Of a stretch of 64,000 nt of DNA, positions 2,832-41,593 are shown in pieces. Origin of the DNA: an uncultured bacterium (lineage in GTDB: Bacteria > Verrucomicrobiota > Kiritimatiellia > RFP12 > UBA1067); contig CACZCD010000001.1 in assembly GCA_902779565.1 (NCBI GenBank), forward strand, positions 3,929 through 67,928, given 5' to 3'. Below the pieces are notes generated by a model. That model searched no databases, had not been told where the DNA came from, and saw only the letters and a list, made by a program, of their open reading frames with translations. The position numbers were made by a program, and so were the translations under genes. The stretch's first letter is position 1. Each line of letters starts with the position of its first letter.

Positions 2832-2858
2832 ACGCCGCTGATTATATCACATGTTCGG

Positions 2859-4589: not shown

Positions 4590-4624
4590 AGTCTCCTTGA
4601 CGGTCAGTTGGTAGTTGATAGTTG

Positions 4625-4782
4625 GTGGTTGATTTGTCTCACGCAGAGGCGCAGAGGACGCAGAGAGAAATTTCGGAGTTGTGACTCCGCTCAAAAAATA
4701 ACATGGATTCCACCTTTCCACTTTTCCACCTTTCCACCATTCCACCTTTCCACTTTTCCACCTTTCAACCTTTCAACTTTTG
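4625..4782. repeat. Tandem-repeat hairpin element copy 1: CA-rich arm (4625-4655) and purine arm (4708-4782) around a spacer carrying GCAGAGG x3 and a small hairpin
   Basis: Plus-strand arms: gttggtagttgatagttggtggttg ... ccacctttccacttttccacctttccaccattccacctttccacttttccacctttcaacctttcaac. The arms are imperfectly complementary (GTTGAWAG units pair with CTTTCMAC units). Confidence 0.8.
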
Positions 4783-6045: not shown

Positions 6046-6061
6046 GGTTCCCGCCTGCGCG

Positions 6062-7150
6062 TCAGATCTTTCCCAGACCGGCGGCGATGCGCTCCGAGAG
6101 ATCCTTGTCACGAAGCGCGGTGAGAACCGGATCAAGTTCTCCCTCGATGATGCGGTCGAGCGAATAGAGAGTGAGATCCACGCGATGATCGGTCAACCGG
6201 TTCTGCGGGAAGTTATAGGTACGGATGCGCTCGGAGCGGTCGCCCGAACCGCGCAGCGTCAGACGCGACGCGCCCAGCTTCGCCTCTTCCTCGCGCCGCT
6301 TGAAGTCGAGGATGCGCGCCTTGAGGGTGGCCAGACACTTCTCGCGGTTTCGGATCTGCGAGCGTTCATCCTGACACTGCGCCACGAGTCCCGTGGGAAG
6401 ATGCGTCATGCGGACGGCGGACTCCGTCTTGTTTACGTGCTGACCGCCCGCGCCGCCCGCACAGAAGAGGTCGATGCGCAGATCCTTCTCGGGAATCTCC
6501 AGCTCATCCTCCTCGTCCGCCTCCGGGAACACCACCACCGTCGCCGCGCTCGTGTGGATGCGTCCCTGCGCCTCCGTCTCAGGCACGCGCTGGACGCGGT
6601 GTCCGCCGCTCTCGAAACGGAAGAGCCCGTAGGCCCCCTCACCCTCAACGGTGAAGATGACCTCCTTGTAGCCATCAAGAGAAGTCTGGTTTTCGGACAT
6701 CACGCGGATGCGCCAGCCCCTCGCCTCGCAGTAGCGCGAATACATGCGGAACAGGTCGCCCGCGAACAGCGCGGCCTCCTCGCCGCCGGTGCCGGCGCGG
6801 ATCTCGAAGCAGGCGTTGCGCGCCTCGAGCGGATCGGGCGGCAGAAGTCCCGCCAGCACCTCACGCTCGGCATCCGGGATGCCCGACGAAAGCAACTCGA
6901 CCTCCTTCGTCGCCTCGGCCGCCAATTCGGGATCCAAAGAGGCGTCGGACAGCATCGCCTTGGCGCCGTCGATGTCGTCCAACAGCTTGAAGTAGCGCTT
7001 CGCCGCCGCTTCGAGCTTCTTGAGGGCCGTGTGTTCGCGCACCGTCTCGCGGTAGCGCTTCACGTCCGCAATAACGGAAGAATCGCCCATCGCGGCTTCC
7101 ACCGCAGAGAGGCGATCCAACACTTTTCCGATCTGGGCTTTCTCGATCAA
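6062..7150 (-). CDS. prfA: Peptide chain release factor 1
   Basis: GGQ motif (GGAGGQHVNKTESAVR), PxT-type tripeptide region (RVQRVPETEAQGRIHTS), about 360 aa. Confidence 0.9.
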   Translation of the reverse strand: MIEKAQIGKVLDRLSAVEAAMGDSSVIADVKRYRETVREHTALKKLEAAAKRYFKLLDDIDGAKAMLSDASLDPELAAEATKEVELLSSGIPDAEREVLAGLLPPDPLEARNACFEIRAGTGGEEAALFAGDLFRMYSRYCEARGWRIRVMSENQTSLDGYKEVIFTVEGEGAYGLFRFESGGHRVQRVPETEAQGRIHTSAATVVVFPEADEEDELEIPEKDLRIDLFCAGGAGGQHVNKTESAVRMTHLPTGLVAQCQDERSQIRNREKCLATLKARILDFKRREEEAKLGASRLTLRGSGDRSERIRTYNFPQNRLTDHRVDLTLYSLDRIIEGELDPVLTALRDKDLSERIAAGLGKI

Positions 7151-7359
7151 GCCTTTTTCTGGAATTTCGCGTAGCGCTTCTTGAACGAGTCAACGCGGCC
7201 TTCCGTGTCAACCATCGTCTTCTGCCCCGTGAAGTAGGGGTGGCACGCGGAGCAGGTGTTCACCTGCATCTCCTTCTTGGTGGAACGCGTCTTGATGACA
7301 TTGCCGCACGCGCACGTAATCGTCGCGTCTTCGTAGGTAGGATGGATTCCTTCTTTCAT
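7147..7359 (-). CDS. rpmE: 50S ribosomal protein L31
   Basis: MKEGIHPTYEDATITCACGNVIKTRS...CSACHPYFTGQ, with a zinc-ribbon CxxC...CxxC, 70 aa. Start chosen at MKEG (7359). Confidence 0.85.
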   Translation of the reverse strand: MKEGIHPTYEDATITCACGNVIKTRSTKKEMQVNTCSACHPYFTGQKTMVDTEGRVDSFKKRYAKFQKKA

Positions 7360-7436
7360 CTTTCTTCTCTGCCTTTCAAAAAAGTGTGCGTATGATACCA
7401 TTTTGCCGCCCTCCGCGCAAGAGGGTGCGCGGGAAA

Positions 7437-7660
7437 GGCGCTTGTGCTTGTGTTTGTTGCCAGTCCGTGGCCGCGTCCGTTGTAGCCCGTTGCCTGTCCG
7501 TTAGGCGTCCGTATTAGCCCGTGTGAAGTCCGTAATCTGCCTGAAGCCTGTCCATGATATGTCCGTGGGTAGTCCGTGGTGTGTCCGTCTATGGGAGGGC
7601 GAGTGTCCTCGTGAAACGCCTCAAGTCCGTAATGCGTCCTTCTCGTATCCGTGTGAAGAA
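7437..7660 (+). repeat. Array R1: about 17 copies of GTCCGT (variants GCCCGT, GTCCTC, ATCCGT) phased at 10-12 bp (mean ~11 bp). It is an inverted copy of block B of R2.
   Basis: ccagtccgtgg ccgcgtccgtt gtagcccgttg cctgtccgtta ggcgtccgtat ... The first ~60 bp (ggcgcttgtgcttgtgtttgttgccagtccgtggccgcgtccgtt) is the near-exact reverse complement of 23225-23285. Confidence 0.85.
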
Positions 7661-7765
7661 ATGCGAAAAGGCGGGCGGCCCGAAGACCGCCCGCCGCCAC
7701 GGAGGGTGCGCGCGTCCACGAATGCAATCCGCTACGCAATCGCGCGCCTCCGTCTTTCTCCGCCC

Positions 7766-10479: not shown

Positions 10480-10625
10480 ACTTAGCAGGGTGCGACACCC
10501 GGACATCGCACCCTGCAATCACCAAACTCCGCAAGGTGCGACACGGACACTTCGCACCCTGCGACTCTCTCTTGTTGCACCCTGCAACATCGCGCTATCG
10601 CACCTTGCCACTTTCGCCCGTCATA
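10480..10625. promoter_or_regulatory. Iteron-like operator array: two good and two degenerate ~46-bp direct repeats, each with an internal dyad GGTGCGA-N10-TCGCACC
   Basis: GCAGGGTGCGAcacccggacaTCGCACCCTGC, then caaGGTGCGAcacggacactTCGCACCCTGCGAC, then gcaccctgcaac...tcgcacc and ccctgcgac. It sits upstream of the sigma-like gene in a 430-bp noncoding gap. Confidence 0.4.
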
Positions 10626-10803: not shown

Positions 10804-11634
10804 TTACATCTTTGGCATCGTGTCCTTCATGCCAAGCGCAAGATACTTGGAGCGCGCATAGTCGTAGTACTTGAGATCGACTATGGAATTCTCTGGAATG
10901 CCGATCGAGGCAAGGTAGCGGTGACGTGCAGTGGTGTCCACGCCATCGGTGCAGCCGGGCACAACAAGGCAGCGAACCTCCATCTTCGCCTTCGCCGCGA
11001 CCAGCCGCTCAAGATTCTTCCTGACGATCTTGTTTGAAACTCCCGTGTACTTCATGTGCAACGTATCGTCCTCGGCCTTGTAGTCTGGGAGCCACAGGTC
11101 CGTGACGGGCAGCATCGCGTCAATCGCAGCGGGTGGCGCGTAGAGCGATGTGTCAAGGCATGTATGAAGTCCGGCGGCCTTGAATGCCTTGAACAGCTCC
11201 GCCGCCCATTCCCAGAAGAACAGCGGTTCGCCGCCGGAGAGCGTCACGCCACCGCCCGACTCGTCGTAGAACGCCTTGTCCTCAAGAGCCTTCGCGACGA
11301 TCTCGGGAATCGTCATCGGCTTGCCGTAGAGCTTGAGCGCCCGCGTCGGACACGTTGCCTCGTCCATCGTGCAATGCTCGTGGTGCTTGCACAGGTGCTG
11401 GAACCGCGCCCACTGCGCCTCAGACTTTATCGATTCGGGGTTGTGGCACCAGATGCACTTCAAGGGGCACCCCTTCACGAAGAAGGTCGTGCGGATGCCC
11501 GGCCCGTCCCAGATCGCCATCCGTTTAGTGTCGAGCATCAGCGGCGCCTTAACGGCACGCCCGGCTGCGGACAGCATTGGGCTTACGGCAAACGCTGTCG
11601 AAGATACGATGAAACTCTTGCGCGTTACAGTCAT
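10804..11634 (-). CDS. Glycyl-radical enzyme activating enzyme (radical SAM)
   Basis: WDGPGIRTTFFVKGCPLKCIWCHNPES (CX3CX2C radical-SAM cluster in the GRE-AE context), plus a second Cys cluster CKHHEHC...C. The true start is probably an internal Met (e.g. 11538). Confidence 0.75.
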   Translation of the reverse strand: MTVTRKSFIVSSTAFAVSPMLSAAGRAVKAPLMLDTKRMAIWDGPGIRTTFFVKGCPLKCIWCHNPESIKSEAQWARFQHLCKHHEHCTMDEATCPTRALKLYGKPMTIPEIVAKALEDKAFYDESGGGVTLSGGEPLFFWEWAAELFKAFKAAGLHTCLDTSLYAPPAAIDAMLPVTDLWLPDYKAEDDTLHMKYTGVSNKIVRKNLERLVAAKAKMEVRCLVVPGCTDGVDTTARHRYLASIGIPENSIVDLKYYDYARSKYLALGMKDTMPKM

Positions 11635-11717
11635 TATGTCACCACTGCTTCATGATATTCTCGGCACGGCGGATGTAGGCATGCCCTTATTGTGCCACAT
11701 TGGCGCATCAGCCACTT

Positions 11718-14700
11718 TCAAGGCAAATATGGACGAATGCAGACGAAATTGACGCCCAGGCGCTCACCCTTGGACGCGGCCTCGTCCGTGATCACGAGTT
11801 CCGTTTCGCCGCGCTCGGCCGCAAACACGACCTGATGCAGGTTGATCCGCCCGTATTTGCCCTTCTTCTTGCTGACCTTCGTGCTGCGGTCAACATATGA
11901 CCAGCTGAGTTCGGGAAGCAACCGCACACCGTCCTTGAAGATGGCCTTAAGCGGAATTTCGCGCGGGTTGGCCTTTCCGGCCTTCATGTCGTCCACATCA
12001 AACGTGGCGTACCTGAGAACGTATGTCCTCCCAGCGACAAGGCCGCAGACCGACTGCGTAAGGTTGTTCGCGGTTTCGCCGCGCTTGAACGAAGCGAAGG
12101 TGTCGCCGCATCCAGTTCTGCCCGCCAGATAACGGTTTTCGGCCCACTCGGCAAGCTTGGGGCATTCGTCAAGCGTCACGTCCCCATGCACCTTCCACGG
12201 CCCGAAAGCGTGCTCGAAATCGCCGTTCCGGAGATGGCCCGGGATGTAGCGCAGACCATACTGCTCCGCAATCGAATCGGTGCGTCCCTCTATGCAGTAG
12301 TGCCGCATCAGGCGGAACGACCAGCGCAGCGTATCGTCATCGGCATGATGGGCGCCCCAGTAACCGGCGGCGACGAGACCATCGCATCGCGGGTCGGTGG
12401 CGAGCGCGTGTATCTGCATCGCGAGATACGCGTTGTAATCGACCTCGGGATGGTGCGCGATCGAAAGCTGCAGAAGCCCCGTGAAGTTCCCACTGACCAC
12501 GCCCAGGCAGTCCTGGCAGAACGGATGCGTATCGCGATACAGCCCCACGCCGACAATCATGGATTCGATGGCCGCAAGCGCCTCAGCCTCCGTCTTTTTC
12601 GTGCGCATATAGCGCTCGTTGAGGAGAAGTCCGCGCCCATGGCCGGCATTCGCAATCGCCGCGAACATCTCGGACTCAATCGGCCGCCGCGTTGGCGACG
12701 CGATCACCCAGGTGCAGACCGTCCGCTCCGTGTCGCGTTCCGCGCAGAACTTCTCGATGGCGTCTATGAACTCCATGTTGGTCTTGTCGTTCTTCGGGCG
12801 GAGTCCCTGTTCGTCGAGCGTGATGCCGTCGCATGCGCGCTGGTTCAGCCCCGTCGATCTGCCGATGTTCCTGCTCATCCTCTCGGCCGTGCCGAGCGTC
12901 CTCACGTTCGCGAGCCACTGCCGCCCGAGGTCGTGCAACCGCCCGATGCTCTCCTTGGGCGCAGGCCCGCCGTTCATCGTCGTCACGCTTGGAACCACGT
13001 AGCGCCAGTAGAAGTCCCAATCGTAGCTCTCCTTGAGCGGCAGCTTGCGCGCGTAGGGGGCATAACAGATGATCATGGGGATCTCGCGCACCGCAATCCG
13101 CCCGGCGCCCTTGACGGCAAGCTGGTGCTCGCCTTGAGAAACAAGCCGCACCGTCTCCAGGGCGGGCGTGCCGTTCGTTATCACGCACTGCCCGTCAAGG
13201 CTTACCTCCGCGCTGTCAGCACCCGACACTCCGATGAACACCCATCCGTGTCTCCGCGTCTCGAACAGAAACTCTCCGGACGTCTCCTCCCCTGGCATTT
13301 TGGCGTCCAGCACCTCGGTCACGTAGTTGTTGAGTCGTTTGCGCCGCTCGGGATGCTTGATCTCCTGCACGGTCTCCACGCCGTACCGATACTTCTTCTC
13401 GTGTATTGCCGTTCCATCGCTGCGGCGCACCAGCGAAACCGTCATACAACCGGAATCGGCATTCTCCGGTAACGTGAAGAACATCTCGTCGCGCACAAGC
13501 GGTGCCCGCAGTTCGCCGCCCCATCCTTCGGAAGATATGAAGACGTCGCAAGTGCTCAGATCGGCGCCGCCCGGCAACTCCCCGAAAAAGCGAAACGAGA
13601 AACGCCGGTCGTCGCTTCTGATCCGCGCAAGCCGGCGGCTCCAAGGCACGAAGCGGGGCTTGCCGTCCACGGATTCGACGGTCCTGTCGGCATCCGAATG
13701 GGCAGTCCAGAATATGGCCGGCCTCAGATCGACATCGCCATCTGCGAGCGTAAACTTCACGTCCTCGAGCTTCACGTTGTCGGCGCAGTCGATGTAGAGG
13801 CCGAATGCCGGCAGGATTGAGGACCCGAAGCTGACCGCAGCATCAGGATACGCTCCCGGCAGCTTCGGCACGGGCTTTTCCATCGCCTCCTTGCTCTTCT
13901 CCTCCCCGGCACCATGGCATGTGATCTTCACGTTCCGCAACGTTACGTTCTTCGCGCGGCATCCGTCAACGCCGGTGATGGAGCTCGCCACAACGCCGTC
14001 CGCCTCGCCCGTCACGTTCTCGATCACGATGTCGCGCAGGATGTAGCTTTTGCCCGGCGACACTCCGGTTGAACGCCCGGTGCGCGTGCCGCCGCGCACG
14101 AATATCGGAACCTTCGCGCCATTCTCAAACGTTATACCGCTGTACCGCACCTGCTCCACCATTCCACCGTCCACGCACTCAACGGAGATGGCCGAGTTGG
14201 CAACGCCGAACGGCGCGCGCTTCGTCGCGCGCCAGAAATACCTGTTCTTCCCGCGATGTTTGGGATTCTTCGAAAGACAGTCGCGCCTCGCGGCCTCGCA
14301 GCGACAGTCTTCGAAGCGGATATTGCGCACCGTGCCGTGGCTGGCCGTGCCTATCTTGAACACGTTGCATTGCGAGCGCCCCACGCAGCGGCGGATCAGG
14401 ACGTTCTCCACGGTGTAGTCTGGGTCGTTGGATTTTATGCAGAACGCATCGTCGCCCGAATCGACATCGCAGTCCTCGATAAGCACGTTCTTCGCCTCGA
14501 TGTCGAACCCGTCGTTGAAGGAATCGGCATGGCTATCGACCTTCACGCGCCGCGCCACAACGTCCTCGCAGCGCTTGAACACGATTCCCCAGCAGGCCGC
14601 GTCGCGCAGGGTGAAATCCTCCAGACGCACCCCCTTGCAGTCCCCGAAGAACAGTCCGCGTGCGTTCAGGCCCTCGCGGCAACCCTTGACGTCCTTCGGG

Positions 14701-15065
14701 CGCTGCGGCCAGCTGAAGCCGTCGCCAAACACCGTCCCCGGCCCCGTGACCGCAACGTTCGTGGCGCAGAGCGCGAACACCACCGCGCTCCACGTCCCCT
14801 CGGAACACGGAAGTTCGGTTACGCGGTAGTCCTTGATGTTCGCAGACCCTTGCAGAACTGCGCCTTCGGCAAGATGCAGCTCCACATTGCTCTTGAGGTC
14901 AAGCTGTCCCACAAGATGCCGCCCGGCCGGCACAACCACCCGTCCACCGCCAGCCGCGTTCGCCGCATCGATCGCGGTCTGCCAGCGCGCGGTTTCGAAA
15001 CCATCTGCAAAAGCGGCCAGCTTGATTGCGCCGGCCGCCGCTACGCAAAATGCACGCAACATCAC
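11718..15065 (-). CDS. Large secreted multidomain glycoside hydrolase with an N-terminal GH28 (pectin-lyase-fold) domain
   Basis: 1115 aa with a signal peptide. GH28 motifs: SGDDAFCIKS (GDD catalytic) and GTASHG (GHG). A long uncharacterised C-terminal region follows. Confidence 0.7.
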   Translation of the reverse strand: MMLRAFCVAAAGAIKLAAFADGFETARWQTAIDAANAAGGGRVVVPAGRHLVGQLDLKSNVELHLAEGAVLQGSANIKDYRVTELPCSEGTWSAVVFALCATNVAVTGPGTVFGDGFSWPQRPKDVKGCREGLNARGLFFGDCKGVRLEDFTLRDAACWGIVFKRCEDVVARRVKVDSHADSFNDGFDIEAKNVLIEDCDVDSGDDAFCIKSNDPDYTVENVLIRRCVGRSQCNVFKIGTASHGTVRNIRFEDCRCEAARRDCLSKNPKHRGKNRYFWRATKRAPFGVANSAISVECVDGGMVEQVRYSGITFENGAKVPIFVRGGTRTGRSTGVSPGKSYILRDIVIENVTGEADGVVASSITGVDGCRAKNVTLRNVKITCHGAGEEKSKEAMEKPVPKLPGAYPDAAVSFGSSILPAFGLYIDCADNVKLEDVKFTLADGDVDLRPAIFWTAHSDADRTVESVDGKPRFVPWSRRLARIRSDDRRFSFRFFGELPGGADLSTCDVFISSEGWGGELRAPLVRDEMFFTLPENADSGCMTVSLVRRSDGTAIHEKKYRYGVETVQEIKHPERRKRLNNYVTEVLDAKMPGEETSGEFLFETRRHGWVFIGVSGADSAEVSLDGQCVITNGTPALETVRLVSQGEHQLAVKGAGRIAVREIPMIICYAPYARKLPLKESYDWDFYWRYVVPSVTTMNGGPAPKESIGRLHDLGRQWLANVRTLGTAERMSRNIGRSTGLNQRACDGITLDEQGLRPKNDKTNMEFIDAIEKFCAERDTERTVCTWVIASPTRRPIESEMFAAIANAGHGRGLLLNERYMRTKKTEAEALAAIESMIVGVGLYRDTHPFCQDCLGVVSGNFTGLLQLSIAHHPEVDYNAYLAMQIHALATDPRCDGLVAAGYWGAHHADDDTLRWSFRLMRHYCIEGRTDSIAEQYGLRYIPGHLRNGDFEHAFGPWKVHGDVTLDECPKLAEWAENRYLAGRTGCGDTFASFKRGETANNLTQSVCGLVAGRTYVLRYATFDVDDMKAGKANPREIPLKAIFKDGVRLLPELSWSYVDRSTKVSKKKGKYGRINLHQVVFAAERGETELVITDEAASKGERLGVNFVCIRPYLP

Positions 15066-16402
15066 TCAATGCTCCCCATGCAGACGAGACGCACACCGTG
15101 CGTCTCGCTTCTATACGTCGGAGAGCCGTTCCCACGCGAAGCAGACCTGCATAAAGAAGCCGCACTTCCGTAGTAACCTCCACGCACAACGCGCATAGAT
15201 GAAGTGCCACGCCGCGGAGACTGGCCATCGTCGGAGACGTTTGCCGCTCCGTTGAGGCTGGAGCAGTCGTCCACATAGTAGTCGTGGCACCATTCCCCCA
15301 AGTTGCCATGCATATCGTAGAGTCCCCAACTATTCTTGCCGTACGACCCGACAGCCGCAGTTGCGTTGTTGGTGGTGCAGAACCTGTCGGGAGCGTCCGT
15401 ACCGTTCACAAGCCCGCCGTTGTACTTGTACCGCCCTGGCAGATTGGAATCTTCTTCCGCATTAGAGTACGGAGTGCCGTCGCCCCATTTGCCTTCGCCG
15501 TTGCCGGCGCGGCAAGCGAATTCCCACTGCGCTTCCGTGGGCATGTCGAAGTCTATGCTTGTCCGCTTGCGAATCATTCCGAGAAATGAATTCTTATGTG
15601 GTGCTTGGGGCCAGTAGGTGGTCTTGTCTGGTTGCACCTGGCTGGTAGTCACCCACCCGGAACACCTGATCTCGGTATAGGCAACGCGATCTACCGGACG
15701 CATTGCTTTGTATGCCTCGTTCGTGTATATGCTGGGGCACTTCCCCATCACGTGATACCATTGCGTCTGGGTCACGGGGAATACGCCGATGTAGTAGTCG
15801 TTCGAGAGCGTCACGAGATGCGGAATTTCGTTTGCCGAGTTGCGCCCAGCCTCGTTGACGCTGCCCATGGTCCACTCCACGTTCTTCGCGTGGATGCGGC
15901 GCATGACCATCTTCGTGGTGCGGTAGTCGTCGTTGCCAAGAAGGCCGCCGGGAAGGAACTCCTCGGACGGATAGTACGCCTGCGTATTTGTCGATACGGT
16001 TGTGATATCCACCACCATGTAGTCCGGCGGCGCGTTCGTCTCCCAGGCCGTGAGAACGGCGCGGATGTTGTTCGCGGGAACCCTGTGTCCCGGCCACGAG
16101 AGGTCGGGCCGCCATTTGATGGAGTAGCGCGACTTGCCGCCAACGATACGGAACACGTCGCTGTCCTCGGTGAAGTTCTGGATGTGTTCGCCGCCGATCG
16201 ACACCCATCCGTTCGCGCCGTTCGTCTGCACGTCAAGCGTCACCACCGCCGGAGACTGCGTGAGTGAATACTCGATGGTTACCGTTCGCCTGACTTGCCG
16301 CACCGTCATGTCTGTGACCTCAGGAAGGTCCGCAATTCCGGAGACGGCGGCGCACGCCGTAATTGCCGCCGCGAATGCCATTTTCATCTTCTGTGCTTTC
16401 AT
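15062..16402 (-). CDS. FGE-sulfatase (SUMF1/EgtB/PvdO) domain protein with N-terminal signal peptide and extra N-terminal domain
   Basis: The C-terminal half ...WEFACRAGNGEGKWGDG...RVVRGGYYGSAASLCRSASRG...HGVRLVC matches the formylglycine-generating-enzyme-like fold. ATGA overlap with the GH28 gene. Confidence 0.65.
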   Translation of the reverse strand: MKAQKMKMAFAAAITACAAVSGIADLPEVTDMTVRQVRRTVTIEYSLTQSPAVVTLDVQTNGANGWVSIGGEHIQNFTEDSDVFRIVGGKSRYSIKWRPDLSWPGHRVPANNIRAVLTAWETNAPPDYMVVDITTVSTNTQAYYPSEEFLPGGLLGNDDYRTTKMVMRRIHAKNVEWTMGSVNEAGRNSANEIPHLVTLSNDYYIGVFPVTQTQWYHVMGKCPSIYTNEAYKAMRPVDRVAYTEIRCSGWVTTSQVQPDKTTYWPQAPHKNSFLGMIRKRTSIDFDMPTEAQWEFACRAGNGEGKWGDGTPYSNAEEDSNLPGRYKYNGGLVNGTDAPDRFCTTNNATAAVGSYGKNSWGLYDMHGNLGEWCHDYYVDDCSSLNGAANVSDDGQSPRRGTSSMRVVRGGYYGSAASLCRSASRGNGSPTYRSETHGVRLVCMGSIE

Positions 16403-16423
16403 TGTTTTTCCTCTTTGATTGGG

Positions 16424-16621
16424 TTACCTGATGCAGACCGAAATTCCACGGAAGAGCCCGTCGCTGTTAAAGTCGAATCCGGAGACCGCCGTTTCCGTGC
16501 AGTATCTGGTATCAAGCTCGAAACCGAACAAAGCCACGCCTGGCATCACCACGTCGTCTGACGCGGTGGAGGCCGCCATCAATGCCGCCGTTGCGGCAAG
16601 AACTGCAATCTTCTTCATCAT
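16424..16621 (-). CDS. Small secreted protein (65 aa)
   Basis: MMKKIAVLAATAALMAASTASDD... signal peptide. Its ATG overlaps the stop of the upstream gene (ATGA). The ORF-track start at 16846 is over-extended. Confidence 0.35.
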   Translation of the reverse strand: MMKKIAVLAATAALMAASTASDDVVMPGVALFGFELDTRYCTETAVSGFDFNSDGLFRGISVCIR

Positions 16622-17685
16622 GCTCTCTCCTTTTGTTTTAATGCTTCTGCGAAAAGATCTATACCCTTGAGGTTGAAGTCGAGGTTCGCCTGCGAACAGC
16701 AGTTGGCCCATGGGGCCATGAGAAAACCGAGGAGGTGTTCGCTCAATATGTGCTTGCGGCAGTACGGCACGAGCGCGCCGATGATGTCGTCGCCGCCGGT
16801 CTTCTGCCGTTTGCGCGCACCGGCGCCCGCCCAGTTCGTGCCGCACGGTATCTGGTCGAAGCCAGCCTTCTCAAGCGCATCGAACGCAGCAAGGCGGTGC
16901 GCGTGCCTGTTGATCTTCGGATCGAGCGACCATTGTCCGAGCTGTTCGTCGTAGTACCAGTTGGACTGCACCACGCTTCTCGGGCAGCGCGTGAAGAACT
17001 CCTCGTGCTCCCAGCCGAAATCACTCCACACCCAGGCGCGCGAGCCAAGCTCCTCCACGCAGCCGACGGTGTAGAGGAAATCGCGCCACCACATGTCGCC
17101 CTGGCGCATGACGAAGTAGTCGCGCCCAGGCGCAAAAAGCGCAGTCTCCTCGTCCCAGCCGAGGTGGAAGAAGCGAGGACGCGAGAAGATCTCCGAAACG
17201 TCACGGATGACGTCTTTGGCCACAATATACCATTCCGGCAGCGTCAACATCCTATGATAATCCTTAAGCCAGCCGTCGTGCGTAGCGGAGAAGTTCAGCT
17301 TCGGGATCGGCTCAAGGCCTGCGGTCCTTAGGCGCTCCACCTCCGCGCGAAGCTTCTCCGCCGACCAGCTGCCCTCAATCGCCAGCTCGGGATGGCTGGG
17401 ATAGATGAGACCCTCGCCGATATCAATCACGATCATGTTGAGATTGCGCTCAACCATCCTATCCGTCACGCGCCGCCAAAGTTCTTCCTTGCATCGAAGG
17501 TTCAGGTCTGGAGTCAGGCGTTTCGGCAGGGAATGCCAAAGATGGCGCGGCAGCCACTCGCCCCACATGTTGTGGCCAAGATGCATCAGCATGGCGCGGA
17601 TGGGTTCCTTCCCGCCTGCATAAGCACCGCCCGCCCCGCGCGTTCCGCGCGAGGCATCGGTGTTGCTATTGATGTCAGTTGCCAT
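16618..17685 (-). CDS. GH20-like (beta-hexosaminidase-fold TIM barrel) protein, family assignment tentative
   Basis: NLNMIVIDIGEGLIY ... EPIPKLNFSATHDGW ... FFHLGWDEE resembles the GH20 catalytic-domain pattern (PEID.PGH ... HIGGDE), with WDEE in place of GGDE. Confidence 0.4.
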   Translation of the reverse strand: MATDINSNTDASRGTRGAGGAYAGGKEPIRAMLMHLGHNMWGEWLPRHLWHSLPKRLTPDLNLRCKEELWRRVTDRMVERNLNMIVIDIGEGLIYPSHPELAIEGSWSAEKLRAEVERLRTAGLEPIPKLNFSATHDGWLKDYHRMLTLPEWYIVAKDVIRDVSEIFSRPRFFHLGWDEETALFAPGRDYFVMRQGDMWWRDFLYTVGCVEELGSRAWVWSDFGWEHEEFFTRCPRSVVQSNWYYDEQLGQWSLDPKINRHAHRLAAFDALEKAGFDQIPCGTNWAGAGARKRQKTGGDDIIGALVPYCRKHILSEHLLGFLMAPWANCCSQANLDFNLKGIDLFAEALKQKERA

Positions 17686-17820
17686 TTGCTTTATGCCGCT
17701 TGATCCTGATGCAACTCTGGTTGTTCCTTAATTGGCGCGTGTTATATCCCGACCGCATCCTATTTCGCAATCCCGATAGAAAGGTGAATCCGCCATCTCG
17801 CATAGGACAGTCATTGTGTG

Positions 17821-20229
17821 TCACCATCCCTTCATCACGTTTTCTGCACGGCGGATGTAGGCATCCTGTTCGGCCTTGCACATATCATTCCACCGCACGT
17901 TCCATCCGCAAATACGAACCTGTAGATTCTCGTATTTTTCGGGGTGCGCCTGGGCATCACGGAGCATCTCTGCACTGAACACGGTGAACTGGATCACGCC
18001 GCCACCGTTTCGGTGGAACATCTGAACGAGCGCACGCATGGCCGCCAGCCCCTTTTCACCCTGAACGACTGACGGATGAAGTAATACGTCAAGCGGATAG
18101 TCGCTTGGTAGCTTCTCCGCCGAAGAAGAAGCCAGGGTCGCAACGAGCGCCGTGGCACCCTCTGTATCGGCTCCCATCGTAGGAGAAAGGTTCTTCGAGA
18201 GTTCATCGCCCTTTTTGCGTCCGTCAGGTGACGCGGGCGTCTTCTTCCCGAGCTCAATGAAGCGCCGCGAGGAATGCCCGCTCGCCAGAAAGATCCCGCC
18301 ACGAGAATTGGGGATGCCATTCAGGTTGGAAGCGAATACATCGATTATCTCTGCGCCCAATGCGTTGGACTCCGGGTCGTTGTTGCCCCACTTCCGCTTT
18401 GAGCGTAGCATCCTCAGGCGCAGCGCCTCATGTCCTTCCCAATCTGATGCCATGATTTCGCCAAGTACGGCCAGCGACTTTTCACGCTTTTCATAGACAA
18501 TCTCCTTCACGGCCAGCAACGCATCCACCGAACTGCCAAGGCCTAACGCGCGCAGCGTGGTATCATTGCCGCGCGGGCACCCCGTTGCAAATCCATCCTG
18601 ACGGGTCTTCAGGGCGTAATCGGTCGCCAACGTCATGCAGATGGCGGGGTTGACCTCAGATAGGGCCTTTTCAATCTCGTACACGATCTTGCGGCTCCTT
18701 GTCGTGTTTTGGGCGACCCGTTTCATGTACTCCGACCGAAACACCTCGAATGTACCCCAATCGGCTGAAGGCGCGCCCTTCCGCGCCTCGTCCAGCATTT
18801 GCACCACAGGGAAGAGCAAGTTCAGGTTCACGGTGTCTGTCGTGTTCAGGCTGTCCGCCAAGCCAAATTCATAGCACCCGCGCACGGCCATGGTACGGCA
18901 GTCTTCGTCGCTTGCGTTTTTCCACCGCTTGAGTACCTTTGAAGCCGACTCCTCGCCAAGGAACGCCACGGAACGCCGCCGCCGCGCCATGTCGAGCAGT
19001 TTCGCCCACGCCCAATCCGGCGTGTTTCCGCCCACCTTCACGATGAACTTGGGTGAGGTGAGGTTGAGCTCATCGACGACATCAAGAATGATGCGCGAGA
19101 CCTCCCCGAATTCGCTGGAACCATCCTGTTTCGTGCCGCCCAGGCCCGCGGGCTGTGCATAGTAGTTCGCGGCGGAACCCCACTGCCAGAGGAAGTGCTT
19201 GATCTGCTCGCGGAATTCCGCCTCGGTCGTGCGCCCCACCGCAATGTCGGAAACATAGTAGGGCGCAAGGAACACATCCAGCTCCGTGAGTGAACGGCAC
19301 TGGATGCCATCGAGGTGTTCCGACCAGAAGAAATAAAGCCACACAAACATCAACATGTCGTAGGCCGTCTGCGGCGGGCCGTTCCGCAGACGCTCCAGAC
19401 AAGCAATTTCCTTTTTAAGACGATCCTTACCATTTGCAATTTTGATTCTTGAACAATTGAGGCAATTGTCATTTGTGAACAATTGCAGTTGTTTCCTCCC
19501 CTGTTCGACAAAACGATCTATTCCGACGAGCATTGCATCCATCGCGATGCGGCATGACTCGCAGAACGGATCGTCTTTCACAGCATACTTCTCCAGACGC
19601 GCCTTCATACCCGGGAATCCGAGCGCGAGGATTACGCGCCAGTCGGGAACGGAATGGTCGAAATCCCGCCACATGAGCCAACGTCCTTCGGCATTGCCGT
19701 CATGCCACTCTTTCCAGGCCCAACTCGGAAGCGTCCTGTTCACTTCGCCATGCCGATGCTTGCCAGCAGAACGGATGGGGCGATTCCAGCGATCCCACAC
19801 GGCTATTGCCGGGAACCAGTCGAAGGGCGACACATCTATAGATTGCCGCTCGATCTGGGCGGCAAAGCATTTCGCCTTCGTGACGCGCCAAGACTCATTT
19901 GCCGACTTGCCCTTGGCGACGATCACTGCCAATAGTTCCTTAAGGGCATCCGTGCCCAATCCCGTCGTCCTGTCAGTAACATCCTGACGGAATTTTCGGC
20001 GCAGATACGTGTCCATATCCGTGATGTTCGCGACATATGGATCCCACCAAGTGATGTCTTCGACACATCTACGCTTTGGCACGACTACTTCATCCCCAAC
20101 CGTGGATGGGGCGGCAACGCCCATCGACAGGACCGCCGCACAGACTGCCGATAGCAGATGCCGTATAAGACACTTGTCTTTCATTGCTCCTCCCATCACT
20201 TCTTCACCACAGGATTGGAACCAGCCCAC
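17821..20229 (-). CDS. Glycyl radical enzyme (PFL-like, dehydratase/lyase GCxE subclass), substrate unknown
   Basis: The C-terminal glycyl-radical domain ...MLRDAQAHPEKYENLQVRICGWNVRWNDMCKAEQDAYIRRAEN aligns with the GRE consensus ...LLDAQKHPEKY..L.VRVSGYSA.F..L....QDDII.R. An internal MAVRGCYEFG fits the GC[VLM]E thiyl-radical loop, and 802 aa is typical. The N-terminal ~70 aa (hydrophobic, signal-like) are probably not part of the mature enzyme; an alternative start is MDTYLRRKF. Confidence 0.75.
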   Translation of the reverse strand: MGWFQSCGEEVMGGAMKDKCLIRHLLSAVCAAVLSMGVAAPSTVGDEVVVPKRRCVEDITWWDPYVANITDMDTYLRRKFRQDVTDRTTGLGTDALKELLAVIVAKGKSANESWRVTKAKCFAAQIERQSIDVSPFDWFPAIAVWDRWNRPIRSAGKHRHGEVNRTLPSWAWKEWHDGNAEGRWLMWRDFDHSVPDWRVILALGFPGMKARLEKYAVKDDPFCESCRIAMDAMLVGIDRFVEQGRKQLQLFTNDNCLNCSRIKIANGKDRLKKEIACLERLRNGPPQTAYDMLMFVWLYFFWSEHLDGIQCRSLTELDVFLAPYYVSDIAVGRTTEAEFREQIKHFLWQWGSAANYYAQPAGLGGTKQDGSSEFGEVSRIILDVVDELNLTSPKFIVKVGGNTPDWAWAKLLDMARRRRSVAFLGEESASKVLKRWKNASDEDCRTMAVRGCYEFGLADSLNTTDTVNLNLLFPVVQMLDEARKGAPSADWGTFEVFRSEYMKRVAQNTTRSRKIVYEIEKALSEVNPAICMTLATDYALKTRQDGFATGCPRGNDTTLRALGLGSSVDALLAVKEIVYEKREKSLAVLGEIMASDWEGHEALRLRMLRSKRKWGNNDPESNALGAEIIDVFASNLNGIPNSRGGIFLASGHSSRRFIELGKKTPASPDGRKKGDELSKNLSPTMGADTEGATALVATLASSSAEKLPSDYPLDVLLHPSVVQGEKGLAAMRALVQMFHRNGGGVIQFTVFSAEMLRDAQAHPEKYENLQVRICGWNVRWNDMCKAEQDAYIRRAENVMKGW

Positions 20230-20511
20230 TATAGCCCTGAACAGCTATGCCAGCGATGGTCAGGCATACCCAACAGAGCATTTTAGTTTTGAATGCGTTT
20301 CTTGTCGCCATTAAATCAGATCTCTTGTTTCGCGTTCTTGAGCTAGTAGTTCTCATTGGTTTGCATGGTCTCATATTCGCGAAGAAAAATCTTGTAAAAA
20401 CAAAACGAAAATATGTATTATCAGCTCATGCGGAAATGAGCCGTACATTGGCACGGACGCGACAAGCGCGCCCAGTTTAAAGTTTAGCGTTTAGGGTTGA
20501 ACTTTAAAACT

Positions 20512-21585
20512 TCAGACTTTCAACTCCGATCCTGAGTCGCCGTCTCGTATGTATTTTACGCTACGCCCCTCTCCAACCTTGCGGACAGCACCGTTCTTGA
20601 CAAGCGAGCCAAGCACGGCTTCAACGGTCGTGGGGCTTACGTCTGGCAATGCACGGCAGATGTCGACCTTTGAGATAGGCGTCAGCGCATTGAGGACGAT
20701 GCTTTTGATCCGGGCCGACTTCGTTACGCGGCCCGTGCTCACTACGGCAAAGCGCCGGTCTAGTTCCTCGTAGCATCCATAAAGCGTCATCAGAAAATTG
20801 ACCATGAACGGGAACGGGCTGTTTTCGTTTGTCTGCCATCCTGCCGACGAATCGCGAAGTGCCGCATAATAGGCGGCCTTGTCTGCGTTGATGCGCTGCT
20901 CGAATGAAATGTACTTGCCGGCGTCGAAACCGTTCCTGTAGAGAAGCAGCAGCGTCAGCAGACGGCTCATGCGTCCGTTGCCGTCGGGGAACGGATGGAT
21001 GCAAAGGAAGTCAAGTATCACGCAAGGAATCAACAGCATCTTGTTTATCTCGACGTCGTCACGGGCCTCCATGTATGCGAGGACAAGCTGCTTCATCGCC
21101 TCCGGCGTCTCCTCCGCGCTTGCAGGGGAAAATCGCACCACGCGCCGGCCGTCTGACATGCGCTCGGCAATCACGTTATCCTCATGCTTGTATCCTGGCT
21201 CCACATCTGACGCCACATAGCGGAGCAGCATTCCGTAGAATCCAATGATGTCTGATTCGGTGAAGTCATGTAGCCGGTAGTTCAGGTGGATTTCGTTCAG
21301 GGCATCACGATAGCCGGAAATCTCCGCTTCAGTATGGTTCATGGGGGATGTCCCCTCCTGCATCAGCTCGGCAAGTCGAGCATCGGTGGTGACAATCCCT
21401 TCAATCGCGTTCGATGCCTTGACGGACTCGATCTTCGCTATGCGCTCCAGCTCCGAATATGCGTGCATAAACCTAACTTTGCGTTCAGCCGACAGCACAC
21501 GAAGAGCTGCGATGCTGCTCGTCAAGTTCACCAGTTTTGCCGGCAGCAAGTCGTTTTTCAGGTACGAATAGTCAAAGATGTGCAT
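20512..21585 (-). CDS. Fic/DOC family protein (AMPylator-type)
   Basis: Canonical Fic motif HPFPDGNGRMSRLLTLLLL. Start chosen at MHIFDYSYL (21585), preceded by AAGGAG. It lies in locally AT-rich DNA. Confidence 0.85.
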   Translation of the reverse strand: MHIFDYSYLKNDLLPAKLVNLTSSIAALRVLSAERKVRFMHAYSELERIAKIESVKASNAIEGIVTTDARLAELMQEGTSPMNHTEAEISGYRDALNEIHLNYRLHDFTESDIIGFYGMLLRYVASDVEPGYKHEDNVIAERMSDGRRVVRFSPASAEETPEAMKQLVLAYMEARDDVEINKMLLIPCVILDFLCIHPFPDGNGRMSRLLTLLLLYRNGFDAGKYISFEQRINADKAAYYAALRDSSAGWQTNENSPFPFMVNFLMTLYGCYEELDRRFAVVSTGRVTKSARIKSIVLNALTPISKVDICRALPDVSPTTVEAVLGSLVKNGAVRKVGEGRSVKYIRDGDSGSELKV

Positions 21586-21710
21586 AGTTTCTCCTTTTGT
21601 GAATAATATTATACCACCTTTTATGCACAAAAACAACAGCTCATGCATAAACATCTTATCTTTAATATGCAGATATGATGCTATACACGGGGAAACACAT
21701 AATTGACCTC

Positions 21711-21792: not shown

Positions 21793-22584
21793 ATGACACT
21801 ACGCGAAAGGAAGAAACTGCAACGCGACTTCTTTGAAGCCGCCGGCCCGAACACGGCCGCGTTCCGTGCACTGATTGATACGATTCCCGATGCGTGCTTC
21901 TACATGAAGGACTTGAACTGCCGCATCATGGCGCTCAACAAACGCAACTGCGAAGTGTGCAACATCAAAAACGAGCTGGATGTGGTGGGGATGCGTTCGG
22001 ACGAAGTTTTCACCCCTGCCGACGCCGAAAGCTTCATGGAACTCGACCTCGAAGTGCAAAGAACCAGAAAGCCAGCACTGAATCGCGTCGAAACGCATCC
22101 TGCCGACAAGTCACCAGGATTCACAATCGCCAGCGTCTATCCGGTCAAGAACAGATTTGGCGACATAATCGGCACCATGCGCCTGTACAGGGTATTCACG
22201 TCACACGACAATATGCCCGAATGGCATGGGCGGATGAAAGCCGTGGTAGCCTACATACAGGAACACTATGCGGAAGAAATCTCCCTTGATGAGCTGGCCA
22301 AGCTGACGGGCAGCTCGGTAAGCCAGTTCAAGCGCATCTTCACGAAGACGCTTGAGATGTCGCCCGGAAGATATATCGTCAACACCCGGATCAACGCCGC
22401 CCGCAAGCTACTGGAGACCACAGACAAGCTCGTCTCTGACATCGCGCAGGAAGTCGGCTTCTATGACCAAAGTCACATGACGCGGGCGTTCAAGACGATT
22501 CGCAGCACCACGCCCGGCGAATACCGCCGCAAGCACCGCTCCATTACGGCCAACAACTCATCCGCACCCAAACGCAAATCCTAA
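21793..22584 (+). CDS. AraC family transcriptional regulator with N-terminal PAS-like sensor domain
   Basis: C-terminal ...YIQEHYAEEISLDELAKLTGSSVSQFKRIFTKTLEMSPGRYIVNTRINAARKLLETTDKLVSDIAQEVGFYDQSHMTRAFK is a canonical AraC dual HTH. Confidence 0.8.
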   Translation: MTLRERKKLQRDFFEAAGPNTAAFRALIDTIPDACFYMKDLNCRIMALNKRNCEVCNIKNELDVVGMRSDEVFTPADAESFMELDLEVQRTRKPALNRVETHPADKSPGFTIASVYPVKNRFGDIIGTMRLYRVFTSHDNMPEWHGRMKAVVAYIQEHYAEEISLDELAKLTGSSVSQFKRIFTKTLEMSPGRYIVNTRINAARKLLETTDKLVSDIAQEVGFYDQSHMTRAFKTIRSTTPGEYRRKHRSITANNSSAPKRKS

Positions 22585-23786: not shown

Positions 23787-25346
23787 TCAGTCGCCGATGT
23801 GGAAGGCGCCGAGCGGGAGATTGACGTCGTTGTAGATCGAGCCGAACCACGGCGACGAATACAGGTAGCGGAGCTTCTTCGGCTCCTTCACGCCCGGTGC
23901 GGAGACGGCGATCCGGGGGCCGTCCAACGTGCCGTGGTACACGGGTTTCCCGTCGCGCTTCGAGGCGACGGCGTTCTGGATCTTCGCCGGCACGAACTTC
24001 CCGTCGGCACCCGCGATCTCGAAGCCGTTCGAAAGCGAACGGTCGGCGTTGTACACGTAGAGACCCTTCGCATGGTTGAACTCCATCACGAACTTGTCGC
24101 CTTCGATCTTCCAGCTCTTGAGCGTCGGCGACTCGTCCTCAATGTCCGTAAAGCCATAGTCACGCTTGAGGGCATGGAGCGCCAGGCGCTTGGCGACAAG
24201 TTCCTTCTCGTTCGGGTGGATATCGCGCAGATTGCCGAGGTCGTTGATGACGGCCATCGCCGCGTTCTTCTCCTCGGCGACGAACTTCGCCTGCGCCTGC
24301 TGGATGTACGGGATGATGTCGGTGCCCCACGGCGCGAGCTGCACGAAGTAGAGCTTGAGATCGGGATTCTCGAAGCACTTCGACCAGCCGTTGTACAGCG
24401 CGTGCATGATGGTATCGTAGCGCGCATAGTCCTTGGCGTTGCTGCAGCCCTGATACCAGATGAAACCGCGCATCGCGAACGGCGTCCACGGTGCCACCAT
24501 CTCGTTCCAGAGCGCCATCGGCTGATCACGGAACGTCTGACGCGAATAGCCAAGTTCCTTCATCCGCTCCGGCTTGAAGTTGGCGACCTCCGGCTGGTAG
24601 GCCGCCTCCTTTTCGCATCCCTTCGTCGCGGCAAAGCCCTCACGCGGCGTCCACGGTTCGGCGCGCGTGCCGCCCCAGTAGCTACCGACGATGCCCACGG
24701 GGATCTCCAAGGCCGCATAGAGCTCCAGCGCATAGTACACGCCCATCGCGGAGAAGCTCGGTGGTTTCGCGAGGTTCTCCGGCGTGAACGCCTTCCATGC
24801 GACCGGATAGTCGGCCTTCGCCTTCGGCGCCGCCGCAGCCTTATAGTTGGAGCAGTAGGCGAACCGTATGAACGGGCGGTGCGTCACCTGCGCCACCATC
24901 GCCCCCTGACGGTCGCGGAAGCGCGGGCTGCCGCCAACGAGCGGAAACTCCGTGTTGGACTGTCCACAGCAGTACCACACCTCGCCCACGAGAACATCCT
25001 TGACCTCCACGATGTCGTCGTCGGGGATGGAGGCGAAGAGCCCCCACAGGTTCGTCCACCGTGCATTCTCGTCGTTCCAGGCGCTCACCTTGAGCGTACG
25101 CCCTTCCTTCGAAGTCTCTAACGGCGCAAGATCCACACGCCATTTGCCGGTGGCGTCCGCCTTCGCCGTGCGCGTCTGCCCGGCGAATTCCACCGTCACC
25201 TCTTCGCCGGCATCCGCCCAGCCCCACACCGGCACGTTCATGCCACGCTGAAGCACCATGCCATCCGCAAACGGGGTGCCGAGCTTCAGTCCCGCCTGCG
25301 CCGCCAGCGCCGCCAACGCCGCCGATACAATCATGAGTTTTTTCAT
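23787..25346 (-). CDS. Secreted sialate O-acetylesterase-like (SGNH/DUF303) hydrolase
   Basis: Signal peptide; LVGEVWYCCGQSNTEF matches the conserved GDVWLCSGQSNMEF block of sialic acid 9-O-acetylesterases; GSYWGG... Confidence 0.7.
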   Translation of the reverse strand: MKKLMIVSAALAALAAQAGLKLGTPFADGMVLQRGMNVPVWGWADAGEEVTVEFAGQTRTAKADATGKWRVDLAPLETSKEGRTLKVSAWNDENARWTNLWGLFASIPDDDIVEVKDVLVGEVWYCCGQSNTEFPLVGGSPRFRDRQGAMVAQVTHRPFIRFAYCSNYKAAAAPKAKADYPVAWKAFTPENLAKPPSFSAMGVYYALELYAALEIPVGIVGSYWGGTRAEPWTPREGFAATKGCEKEAAYQPEVANFKPERMKELGYSRQTFRDQPMALWNEMVAPWTPFAMRGFIWYQGCSNAKDYARYDTIMHALYNGWSKCFENPDLKLYFVQLAPWGTDIIPYIQQAQAKFVAEEKNAAMAVINDLGNLRDIHPNEKELVAKRLALHALKRDYGFTDIEDESPTLKSWKIEGDKFVMEFNHAKGLYVYNADRSLSNGFEIAGADGKFVPAKIQNAVASKRDGKPVYHGTLDGPRIAVSAPGVKEPKKLRYLYSSPWFGSIYNDVNLPLGAFHIGD

Positions 25347-33183: not shown

Positions 33184-33297
33184 GGACTTCTTTCCTTTCT
33201 TTGTCTGGTATTCCTCCATTGCCCTATATTATAACATACGATCCGCTCTTCGGGAAACCCGACGAACGGATCGCAGATTGGCCAGTTTAAAACACCG

Positions 33298-39663: not shown

Positions 39664-39759
39664 GCACGCTATTATACAGAAATGCCGCCCGTCAGGCAAT
39701 GGCCTCCCACGCGCTATATGTTGACCTTATTCCCCGGCTGTCAACACTGTTGTGGGGTT

Positions 39760-41526: not shown

Positions 41527-41593
41527 TGTGTACGCATTCCTTTCTTTTGTTGTGGTCGCGATTTTACCACATCCGCCCCGCCCGTTCAACAGG

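Follow-up and report, generated by a model that had tools for sequence, protein, structure and literature searches.

Export-type presequences on a divergent glycyl-radical enzyme and its activase in a carbohydrate-related gene cluster of a rumen Kiritimatiellae bacterium

The DNA analysed here (hereafter the window) is a stretch of 64,000 nucleotides (nt) from a rumen Kiritimatiellae bacterium. Its 10.8–20.2 kb region carries six genes, all on the minus strand, in the order glycyl-radical enzyme (GRE), 355-amino acid (aa) protein, 65-aa peptide, protein with the fold of formylglycine-generating enzymes (FGE), glycoside hydrolase family 28 (GH28) protein and GRE-activating enzyme (AE). The same order was obtained in an independent gene call on the near-identical public contig L041. 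The gaps in transcription order are 135, -4, 21, -4 and 83 nt, and both these coordinates and the L041 gene call bear out the co-oriented genes with short gaps or ATGA overlaps reported in a preliminary description of the window. An AT-rich stretch upstream of the GRE gene holds a weak sigma-70-like promoter match (20280..20308, minus strand, 9 of 12 consensus positions). A strong terminator-like hairpin with a 14-bp stem and a T-run (10485..10516, minus strand) lies about 290 nt past the AE stop codon and likely marks the operon end. In view of the short gaps, the promoter-like site and the hairpin, the six genes probably form one operon and would be co-transcribed. An Rfam search for a riboswitch in the AT-rich leader gave no match, nor did a tRNA search or a plasmid similarity search.

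The first gene (17821..20184, minus strand) encodes a GRE, as recognised from Pfam, NCBIfam, sequence motifs and the predicted fold. Its longest open reading frame (17821–20229) begins at a GTG codon at position 20229 and corresponds to the 802 aa given in the preliminary description. The ATG at 20184 is the likelier start because it is preceded by the ribosome-binding site GGGAGGAG, so that the GRE identity stands but the length is more probably 787 aa. The protein matches the PFL-like domain PF02901 with 158 bits and the Gly_radical domain PF01228 with 68 bits. The thiyl Cys437 and Glu439 are found in a GCYE loop (RGCYE, encoded at about 18868–18876), and the radical Gly760 in the R757-I-C-G760-W segment (VRICGW, glycine codon at 17905–17907); both loops are thus present as first noted. 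The Gly, Cys and Glu residues are invariant in 36 paralogs from all subfamilies and in 36 close homologs, and they are also kept in distant relatives. The Glu two residues past the thiyl Cys, in a GC[YF]E motif found in every family member examined, is the feature expected of the dehydratase/lyase (eliminase) subclass to which the enzyme had been assigned, and its catalytic role can be predicted on this basis. From these motifs and domains, the protein is a genuine member of the GRE superfamily that forms a pair with the AE described below, with radical formation as the predicted activity.

The GRE nonetheless lies far outside every characterised clade. The NCBIfam equivalog models tested (HypD, CutC, HpsG/HpfG, PFL, and the HPD and IAD decarboxylases) all score at 5–20% of their cutoffs, with 179 bits against 1100 for HypD, 123 against 1050 for CutC and 129 against 1000 for HpsG, and none reaches its curated cutoff. 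The generic PFL2/glycerol-dehydratase model TIGR01774 also stays far below threshold (201 bits against 678). The AlphaFold2 (AF2) model of the GRE aligns over its full length to solved GREs, about equally well to HypD, propanediol dehydratase, PflD, glycerol dehydratase and CutC (TM-scores of 0.63–0.71, 14–21% identity), with no clear nearest neighbour. The best solved GRE by sequence score reaches 152 bits. When 1.84 billion representatives were searched exhaustively, 669 clusters were retrieved at E<=1e-30, and the best 150 of these clusters (50% identity) all score at least 211 bits, which makes them closer than any solved GRE. Scores and identities thus agree with the uncharacterised status first proposed, and neither reveals tight clustering with a characterised clade. 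A description of the substrate pocket from the AF2 model was dropped, since the Cys loop, poorly modelled, and residues 509–539 have predicted local distance difference test (pLDDT) values below 50.

The closest homologs come from metagenome-assembled genomes of rumen and gut Kiritimatiellae, where they are annotated as “hypothetical protein.” As judged from these searches, the family represents a large multi-paralog GRE expansion, known to date almost exclusively from Kiritimatiellae of the gut and rumen, a feature missed in the preliminary description. At least three paralog subfamilies can be distinguished: A, the window type; B, 41–43% identical; and C, 46–49% identical. All three retain GC[YF]E and RV[CA]GWN. 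Tandem paralogs are observed, with up to three consecutive copies in locus L009 and four or more sharing a contig in L025/L029, and the loci usually hold one highly conserved AE.

Nearly all members of this family also carry predicted N-terminal export signals, which had not been noticed before. Signal peptides were called by inspection and hydropathy, and the motifs of the Tat pathway (twin-arginine translocation) were also searched with TAT_signal hidden Markov models (HMMs). In the window GRE, a signal peptide typical of the general secretory (Sec) pathway, MKDKCLIRHLLSAVCAAVLSMGVAAP (20107..20184, minus strand), combines a basic n-region, a 16-residue hydrophobic core and small residues before a Pro. 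Its peak hydropathy is 2.69, as compared to 1.0–2.1 in Tat-like relatives; Sec-like h-regions range from 1.7 to 3.0, all but one of them at 2.16 or above. The AF2 model shows an isolated helix at residues 5–19, followed by a disordered linker. Among the 120 closest GREs, 64 have a TR[RK]xFLxG Tat-like presequence, in which the motif precedes a Gly/Ala/Ser-rich core of weak hydrophobicity and then an AxA-P site, and 23 have a Sec-like one; the others are mostly gene calls cut short inside the same presequences. In subfamilies B and C, the signals are of the Sec type, and acidic residues come after them. For the RR variants, the TAT_signal models are the only presequence match, with 12.9–14.6 bits for TIGR01409 (cutoff 16.7) and 15.1–17.4 bits for PF10518 (cutoff 22.7); the RK variants gave no TAT_signal match. 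Inspection of the presequences of distant GRE relatives from Firmicutes, Lentisphaeria and Desulfovibrio revealed no export signal. Elsewhere in the window, two calcineurin-like metallophosphatases (39760–41589 and 32275–33219, both minus strand) have twin-arginine presequences in the TRRTFLGG style, MRTTRRTFLGGAMLAP and, together with a lipobox Cys, SRRFFIEG. The organism thus uses the same presequence style as the GRE family. A microcompartment encapsulation peptide was considered and rejected, since the presequences are Gly/Ala/Ser-rich with TRRxFL rather than charged amphipathic helices, and the annotated genes include no shell genes.

The last gene of the cluster (10804..11634, minus strand) encodes the AE, a radical S-adenosylmethionine (SAM) enzyme of 276 aa. 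Its score of 223 bits for TIGR02494 (cutoff 174) and its CX3CX2C motif (C56, C60 and C63, encoded at 11446–11469) agree with the GRE-activating function first assigned to it. In activases of eliminase-type GREs, the radical-SAM motif is usually followed by a ferredoxin-like domain with two clusters and about 60 residues. In the window AE, residues 64–100 form instead a short insert with three Cys (CKHHEHCTMDEATCP) and no full two-cluster ferredoxin domain, which places it, on sequence features, in an intermediate position between PFL-AE and the activases of eliminase-type GREs. Its conserved PLMLD core is preceded by a Tat-like presequence, MTVTRKSFIVSSTAFAVSPMLSAAGRAVKA (11545..11634, minus strand), likewise missed in the preliminary description. 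Of the 120 closest AE homologs, 115 share this presequence with its R[RK]xF motif, and the AEs of other lineages begin directly at MKTPLMLD with an in-frame stop just upstream. The window AE contains T-R-K-S-F-I and has no TAT_signal match, while the RR variants reach 13–17 bits on PF10518 (cutoff 22.7) and 13–15 bits on TIGR01409 (cutoff 16.7). An internal alternative start, which would yield a cytoplasmic AE isoform, was ruled out for the window, since the codon at the presequence-less start position is GTT, not a start codon.

The presequences of the two partners co-vary. A further 80 loci were fetched around AE homologs, and the 29 loci in which both N-termini could be read were scored. 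Of the 15 loci whose AE lacks a presequence, 14 have a Tat-like GRE and one a GRE without signal, whereas of the 14 loci with a Tat-like AE, 11 have a Sec-like GRE, two a Tat-like GRE and one a GRE without signal (Fisher p = 6e-6 over the 29 loci, without phylogenetic correction). A neighbour-joining tree of the AE cores, drawn without bootstrap support, shows the two AE types intermingled, which suggests repeated switches between them. This covariation is the pattern that an export logic predicts: a folded, pre-activated GRE could use Tat, while a Sec-exported GRE would need activation after export by an iron–sulfur AE that itself needs Tat. According to its presequences, the window has the Sec-GRE and Tat-AE form. 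AEs with a Tat-type presequence are also found directly downstream of Sec-type GREs in L050, L056, L062 and L071; other Sec-type GREs often have no AE within about 10 kb (L005, L009). A fully cytoplasmic form, with no presequence on either partner, is represented by L019 and L127.

Several of the closest 50%-identity representatives are single polypeptides that combine a Sec signal, a domain typical of carbohydrate-active enzymes (CAZymes) and a GRE domain. The fused domains are an AXE1/CE7 acetyl-xylan esterase (two clusters), a SASA acetylesterase, a GH2 beta-mannosidase-like domain, a GH78 rhamnosidase, a GH43 domain, a DUF1080/3-keto-disaccharide-hydrolase-like domain and an 840-aa region without family match. 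At the junctions, the mature GRE begins directly where the CAZyme domain ends, with no signal-peptide relic in between, and both catalytic loops are retained in the full-length fusions checked. In L127 (294–4414), a beta-lactamase-fold domain (PF00144) and a subfamily-A GRE form one continuous open reading frame at the DNA level, followed by a presequence-less AE; the fusion point coincides with the signal-peptide cleavage position of stand-alone GREs, and this protein looks like a fully cytoplasmic form. In other loci, GH29 with DUF4838, GH27/NPCBM, GH39, GH5, GH2, DUF5696 and a BD-FAE esterase adjoin the GRE/AE genes. The cytoplasmic relatives from a Firmicute and a Lentisphaeria adjoin sugar-binding proteins, a GH63-like hydrolase and a GDSL esterase. 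The link to glycan breakdown put forward earlier is thus supported by these natural fusions to secreted CAZyme domains and by the CAZyme genes adjoining in many loci.

The gene content, motifs, clade distance, presequences, covariation and CAZyme fusions are observed; what we infer from here on is export, radical activity, a carbohydrate substrate and elimination chemistry. The reading that we favour, with moderate confidence, is that of an extracytoplasmic eliminase-type GRE that would act on a carbohydrate-derived substrate and is encoded, in a probable operon, with secreted glycan-active proteins and its own AE. In the form found in the window, the GRE would leave the cytoplasm unfolded through Sec, and the AE, with its [4Fe-4S] cluster(s) already loaded, would follow through Tat and set the radical on Gly760 outside the cytoplasm. 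Cys437 would take a hydrogen from a carbinol carbon of the sugar-derived substrate, Glu439 would deprotonate the hydroxyl (base-assisted ketyl formation), and a vicinal substituent, such as a hydroxyl, an ether or glycosidic oxygen, or an ester, would be eliminated. This chemistry is proposed because of the conserved Cys-x-Glu and by comparison with the diol dehydratases, with HypD and with class III ribonucleotide reductase. In the sister lineages with a Tat-GRE and a presequence-less AE, activation would occur in the cytoplasm, before export of the folded GRE. The active sites of GREs are buried, which makes a polymer a less plausible substrate than a sugar unit or the end of an oligosaccharide. 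That the GRE is often fused to exo-glycosidases and deacetylating esterases would fit the removal of a blocking feature.

Several points weigh against this proposal. The export, the radical and the activity are all deduced from sequence, and the Tat assignment relies on a motif that is mostly RK, not RR, and on sub-threshold HMM scores. L018 and L045/L075 depart from the covariation, and shared ancestry is not taken into account in the Fisher test. No dominant partner family emerges from the neighbour census detailed below, in genomes that are CAZyme-rich anyway. The buried GRE active sites argue against polymeric substrates, and the AF2 model is only moderate (pLDDT 68, pTM 0.71), so that no substrate pocket can be read from it. 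Finally, we know of no periplasmic source of SAM or of low-potential electrons, both of which a periplasmic AE needs; the Sec-GRE and Tat-AE combination would therefore require either a single-turnover AE exported together with its SAM or an unknown supply.

Alternatively, the GRE would be cytoplasmic and act on a common small molecule, such as a sugar-derived diol or an amino alcohol, with the N-terminal hydrophobic segments serving as membrane tethers or having no export role, and with a CAZyme adjacency that is incidental in a CAZyme-dense genome. All characterised GREs are indeed cytoplasmic, as are SAM and flavodoxin; the neighbours are highly variable, the TAT HMM scores lie under their cutoffs, and family members without presequence exist (L019, L045 and L127). 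We nevertheless hold this explanation to be rather unlikely, since three paralog subfamilies with unrelated presequences all retain a signal-peptide architecture, the charges around the hydrophobic core of the window GRE and of subfamily B predict an N-in/C-out orientation, the type of GRE signal and the AE presequence vary together, and the fusions put the GRE behind GH and carbohydrate esterase (CE) domains that bear signal peptides.

An exported but non-radical protein, whose GRE fold would be a binding, scaffolding or non-radical catalytic module of secreted CAZymes while the AE serves cytoplasmic paralogs only, seems improbable. It would dispense with a radical installation outside the cell, which is hard to explain, and would suit the Sec-exported copies often found without an AE within about 10 kb. 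Against it stand the RV[CA]GWN and GC[YF]E motifs and much of the barrel, which are invariant among paralogs just 40–50% identical, as well as the retention of both loops in the fusions and the AEs with an export-type presequence placed directly downstream of Sec-type GREs. As to a divergent member of a characterised dehydratase/lyase clade (propanediol or glycerol dehydratase, HypD, CutC, IslA/HpsG or PflD/YbiW) whose usual neighbours are simply missing here, it shares the Cys-x-Glu motif and the fold, with HypD, propanediol dehydratase and PflD as top fold matches, but it is very improbable given the sub-cutoff scores on equivalog and TIGR01774 models, the 14–21% identity with no preferred nearest neighbour, and the lack, among the annotated genes, of those that typically go with such systems, for a microcompartment shell, a transporter or a downstream pathway.

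A broader and more tentative proposal can be built on the extracytoplasmic GRE: the Kiritimatiellae may have moved glycyl-radical chemistry out of the cytoplasm, the exported and partly CAZyme-fused GREs forming a group of “radical CAZymes” with two interchangeable maturation routes. The first route would be cytoplasmic activation followed by Tat export, and the second, a Sec-exported GRE activated by a Tat-exported AE. Such enzymes would remove or cleave carbohydrate features that, under anoxia, are beyond the reach of hydrolases, for instance ether-linked decorations or residues blocked in some other way. To our knowledge, every characterised GRE is cytoplasmic and acts on small metabolites, and no GRE-type radical enzyme is counted among the carbohydrate-active enzymes. 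Full-text literature searches on exported, Tat-linked, CAZyme-linked or Kiritimatiellae GREs gave nothing relevant, with subscription journals mostly outside their coverage, so that a prior description is possible. If the proposal is true, exported CAZyme-fused GREs would bring a new catalytic principle to the anaerobic breakdown of glycans in rumen and gut, and the family would account for part of the “hypothetical” gene content of Kiritimatiellae. It would also raise the sharp question of how a SAM- and electron-dependent activation occurs, or how a protein radical survives, outside the cytoplasm, the Sec-GRE and Tat-AE route implying a new periplasmic source of SAM and reducing power or a single-turnover AE. 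The covariation of export signals between the enzyme and its AE yields directly testable predictions. A family of GREs and AEs with coordinated export signals and CAZyme fusions is more surprising than what the preliminary description proposed.

Comparison with known systems helps to delineate what is specific to this family. It shares with the eliminase GREs (B12-independent glycerol and 1,2-propanediol dehydratases, HypD, CutC, IslA/HpsG) the ten-stranded barrel, the C-terminal glycyl-radical domain, the GCxE motif with the thiyl Cys and the Glu two residues later, and a dedicated radical-SAM activase. These enzymes are only 14–21% identical to the window GRE, which falls under all family cutoffs, and their glycyl loop is RVxGY/F rather than RV[CA]GWN. 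Unlike them, the Kiritimatiellae GREs have N-terminal export signals, many paralogs per genome and CAZyme fusions, and the window GRE lacks a microcompartment or small-molecule pathway context. The PflD/YbiW GREs acting on 1,5-anhydrohexitol-6-phosphate (PDB 8yjo, 8id0 and 8id7) have a sugar-derived substrate and are among the top fold matches (TM-scores of 0.70–0.73), but they are cytoplasmic, use phosphorylated substrates, are about 20% identical and do not cluster by sequence with the window GRE (126–129 bits). Class III (anaerobic) ribonucleotide reductase resembles the proposed mechanism in that a thiyl abstracts a hydrogen from a sugar carbon and a vicinal hydroxyl is then lost; it belongs, however, to another GRE branch, is cytoplasmic, acts on nucleotides and finishes its reaction by reduction.

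Two other analogies concern maturation. The Tat-exported cofactor enzymes, such as iron–sulfur and molybdo-enzymes or the Gfo/Idh/MocA oxidoreductases of the Planctomycetes–Verrucomicrobia–Chlamydiae (PVC) group, mature in the cytoplasm and are exported folded, by a logic similar to that of a Tat-GRE with a presequence-less AE; Tat-type presequences are also found on other window proteins. The difference is that the exported “cofactor” would here be a protein radical, and that the window reverses the roles, with a Sec-type enzyme and a Tat-type maturase. In the pairs formed by sulfatases and the anaerobic sulfatase-maturating enzyme (anSME) in PVC glycan degraders, a radical-SAM maturase likewise modifies one residue of an exported and heavily expanded glycan-active family. 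The anSME works in the cytoplasm, ahead of Sec export, and the formylglycine that it makes is stable, whereas the modification would here be a labile radical, and the maturase itself bears an export-type signal.

The gene neighbourhood of the family is highly variable. When all window operon proteins were compared by tblastn with 127 related loci, the GH28/FGE arrangement was present only in the near-identical contigs L041 and L042, which rules out a conserved partnership of these genes with the GRE. The use of this operon content as a functional clue, on which the preliminary description relied, is thus not sustained: the partnership is strain-specific, and the close relative L047, in which the downstream 165-aa gene is 99% identical and the AE core 95% identical to the window, carries other genes at the same position. 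There, a GH2 gene, a different GRE paralog (GCYEPGIGG, RVCGWNVLWND) and a Tat-like AE occupy 1325–7669. From this replacement at one and the same place in the chromosome, the cassette of GRE and CAZyme genes that lies upstream of the AE appears exchangeable between strains. A Pfam census of 101 co-oriented neighbours returned many different CAZymes, none of them dominant, and thereby ruled out a single conserved neighbour family. A large secreted repeat protein (600–1250 aa, no Pfam match) lies directly upstream of the GRE in six loci (L010, L012, L013, L017, L029 and L030). The large secreted repeat proteins next to the GRE span 600–1600 aa in all, and L001 and L002 hold Gly_rich_2 giants. 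In L002 and L003 (10637–10975), the GRE is followed by a 112-aa AE remnant, in which MKTPL is joined straight to the C-terminal third and which looks like an internally deleted pseudogene; this locus also encodes a BNR sialidase-like protein and a GDPD phosphodiesterase.

One recurrent neighbour of the GRE family, overlooked at first, is a PAS/AraC-type regulator. In the window, it was identified by Pfam at 21793..22584 on the plus strand, divergent from the operon, and homologs are also found upstream of the GRE in L006, L010, L012, L013, L029 and L044. The unit formed by AraC, a big protein and the GRE is sometimes duplicated on one contig. In the window, a Fic-domain gene (20512–21654, minus strand) sits between the GRE and the regulator. 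The 20–22 kb segment that contains it has a GC content of 0.51, against about 0.60–0.62 in the flanks, and this low value together with the placement of the Fic gene suggests an insertion into the regulator–GRE intergenic region.

The four other genes of the cluster are accessory ones. The GH28 assignment of the secreted 1115-aa protein (11718..15065, minus strand) is solid, in line with the preliminary description: its N-terminal domain, of the rhamnogalacturonidase/polygalacturonase type, matches PF00295 with 81 bits and PDB entry 5olp at 3e-30, and the NDG..D (NDGFD), GDD and SHG motifs are present, which makes the activity a prediction. About 850 residues of this protein are without family match. 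The secreted FGE-fold protein (15062..16402, minus strand) has a SUMF1 domain (PF03781, 111 bits) and a Sec signal. The fold given earlier is thus correct, but a sulfatase-maturing role is unlikely, since the first of the two catalytic copper-binding Cys is replaced by Ser in a manual alignment (GGYYGSAASLCRS), and the best PDB matches are a T. denticola variable protein, PorK and PvdO rather than sulfatase-maturing FGEs. The protein is probably not an FGE, and, with the first catalytic Cys missing, it gives no basis for the sulfo-sugar substrate that had been suggested. The 65-aa secreted peptide (16424..16621, minus strand), which starts with MMKKIAVLAATAALMAAS, has a signal sequence and an ATG overlapping the upstream stop codon (ATGA); no homolog of it was found by tblastn in the other loci compared. 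In the window, the GRE, the GH28 protein, the FGE-fold protein and the 65-aa peptide are alike, by inspection and hydropathy, in their basic n-region, their hydrophobic core and the small residues that they have at -3/-1.

The 355-aa protein (16618..17685, minus strand) is a distant GH20-like TIM-barrel protein. Its similarity to GH20, already proposed, is found at the level of the family profile, which matches the beta-N-acetylhexosaminidase 8bal (E=1e-4) and the GH20 enzyme 9fyl (E=1e-3) over partial regions only, but the window copy has no Pfam match and PF00728 (GH20) is present in only 1 of 120 homologs. The family comprises more than 3000 uncharacterised proteins, and 95 of the 120 closest carry a canonical RR Tat signal, in some cases together with a lipobox. 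Such a signal is missing from the window copy, which has no signal peptide, and from its two nearest relatives, and the window copy may for this reason be cytoplasmic or decayed.

A few kilobases upstream of the locus, a secreted SASA-type carbohydrate acetylesterase is encoded in the region of 23787–25346 and 26568–28046 (both minus strand), which also encodes a B12-binding radical-SAM protein. The SASA domain is the same as that found fused to the GRE in P0365. Further upstream, the 33793–39699 interval (minus strand) encodes a 1968-aa homolog of bacterial alpha-2-macroglobulin with MG2, A2M and bMG10 domains.

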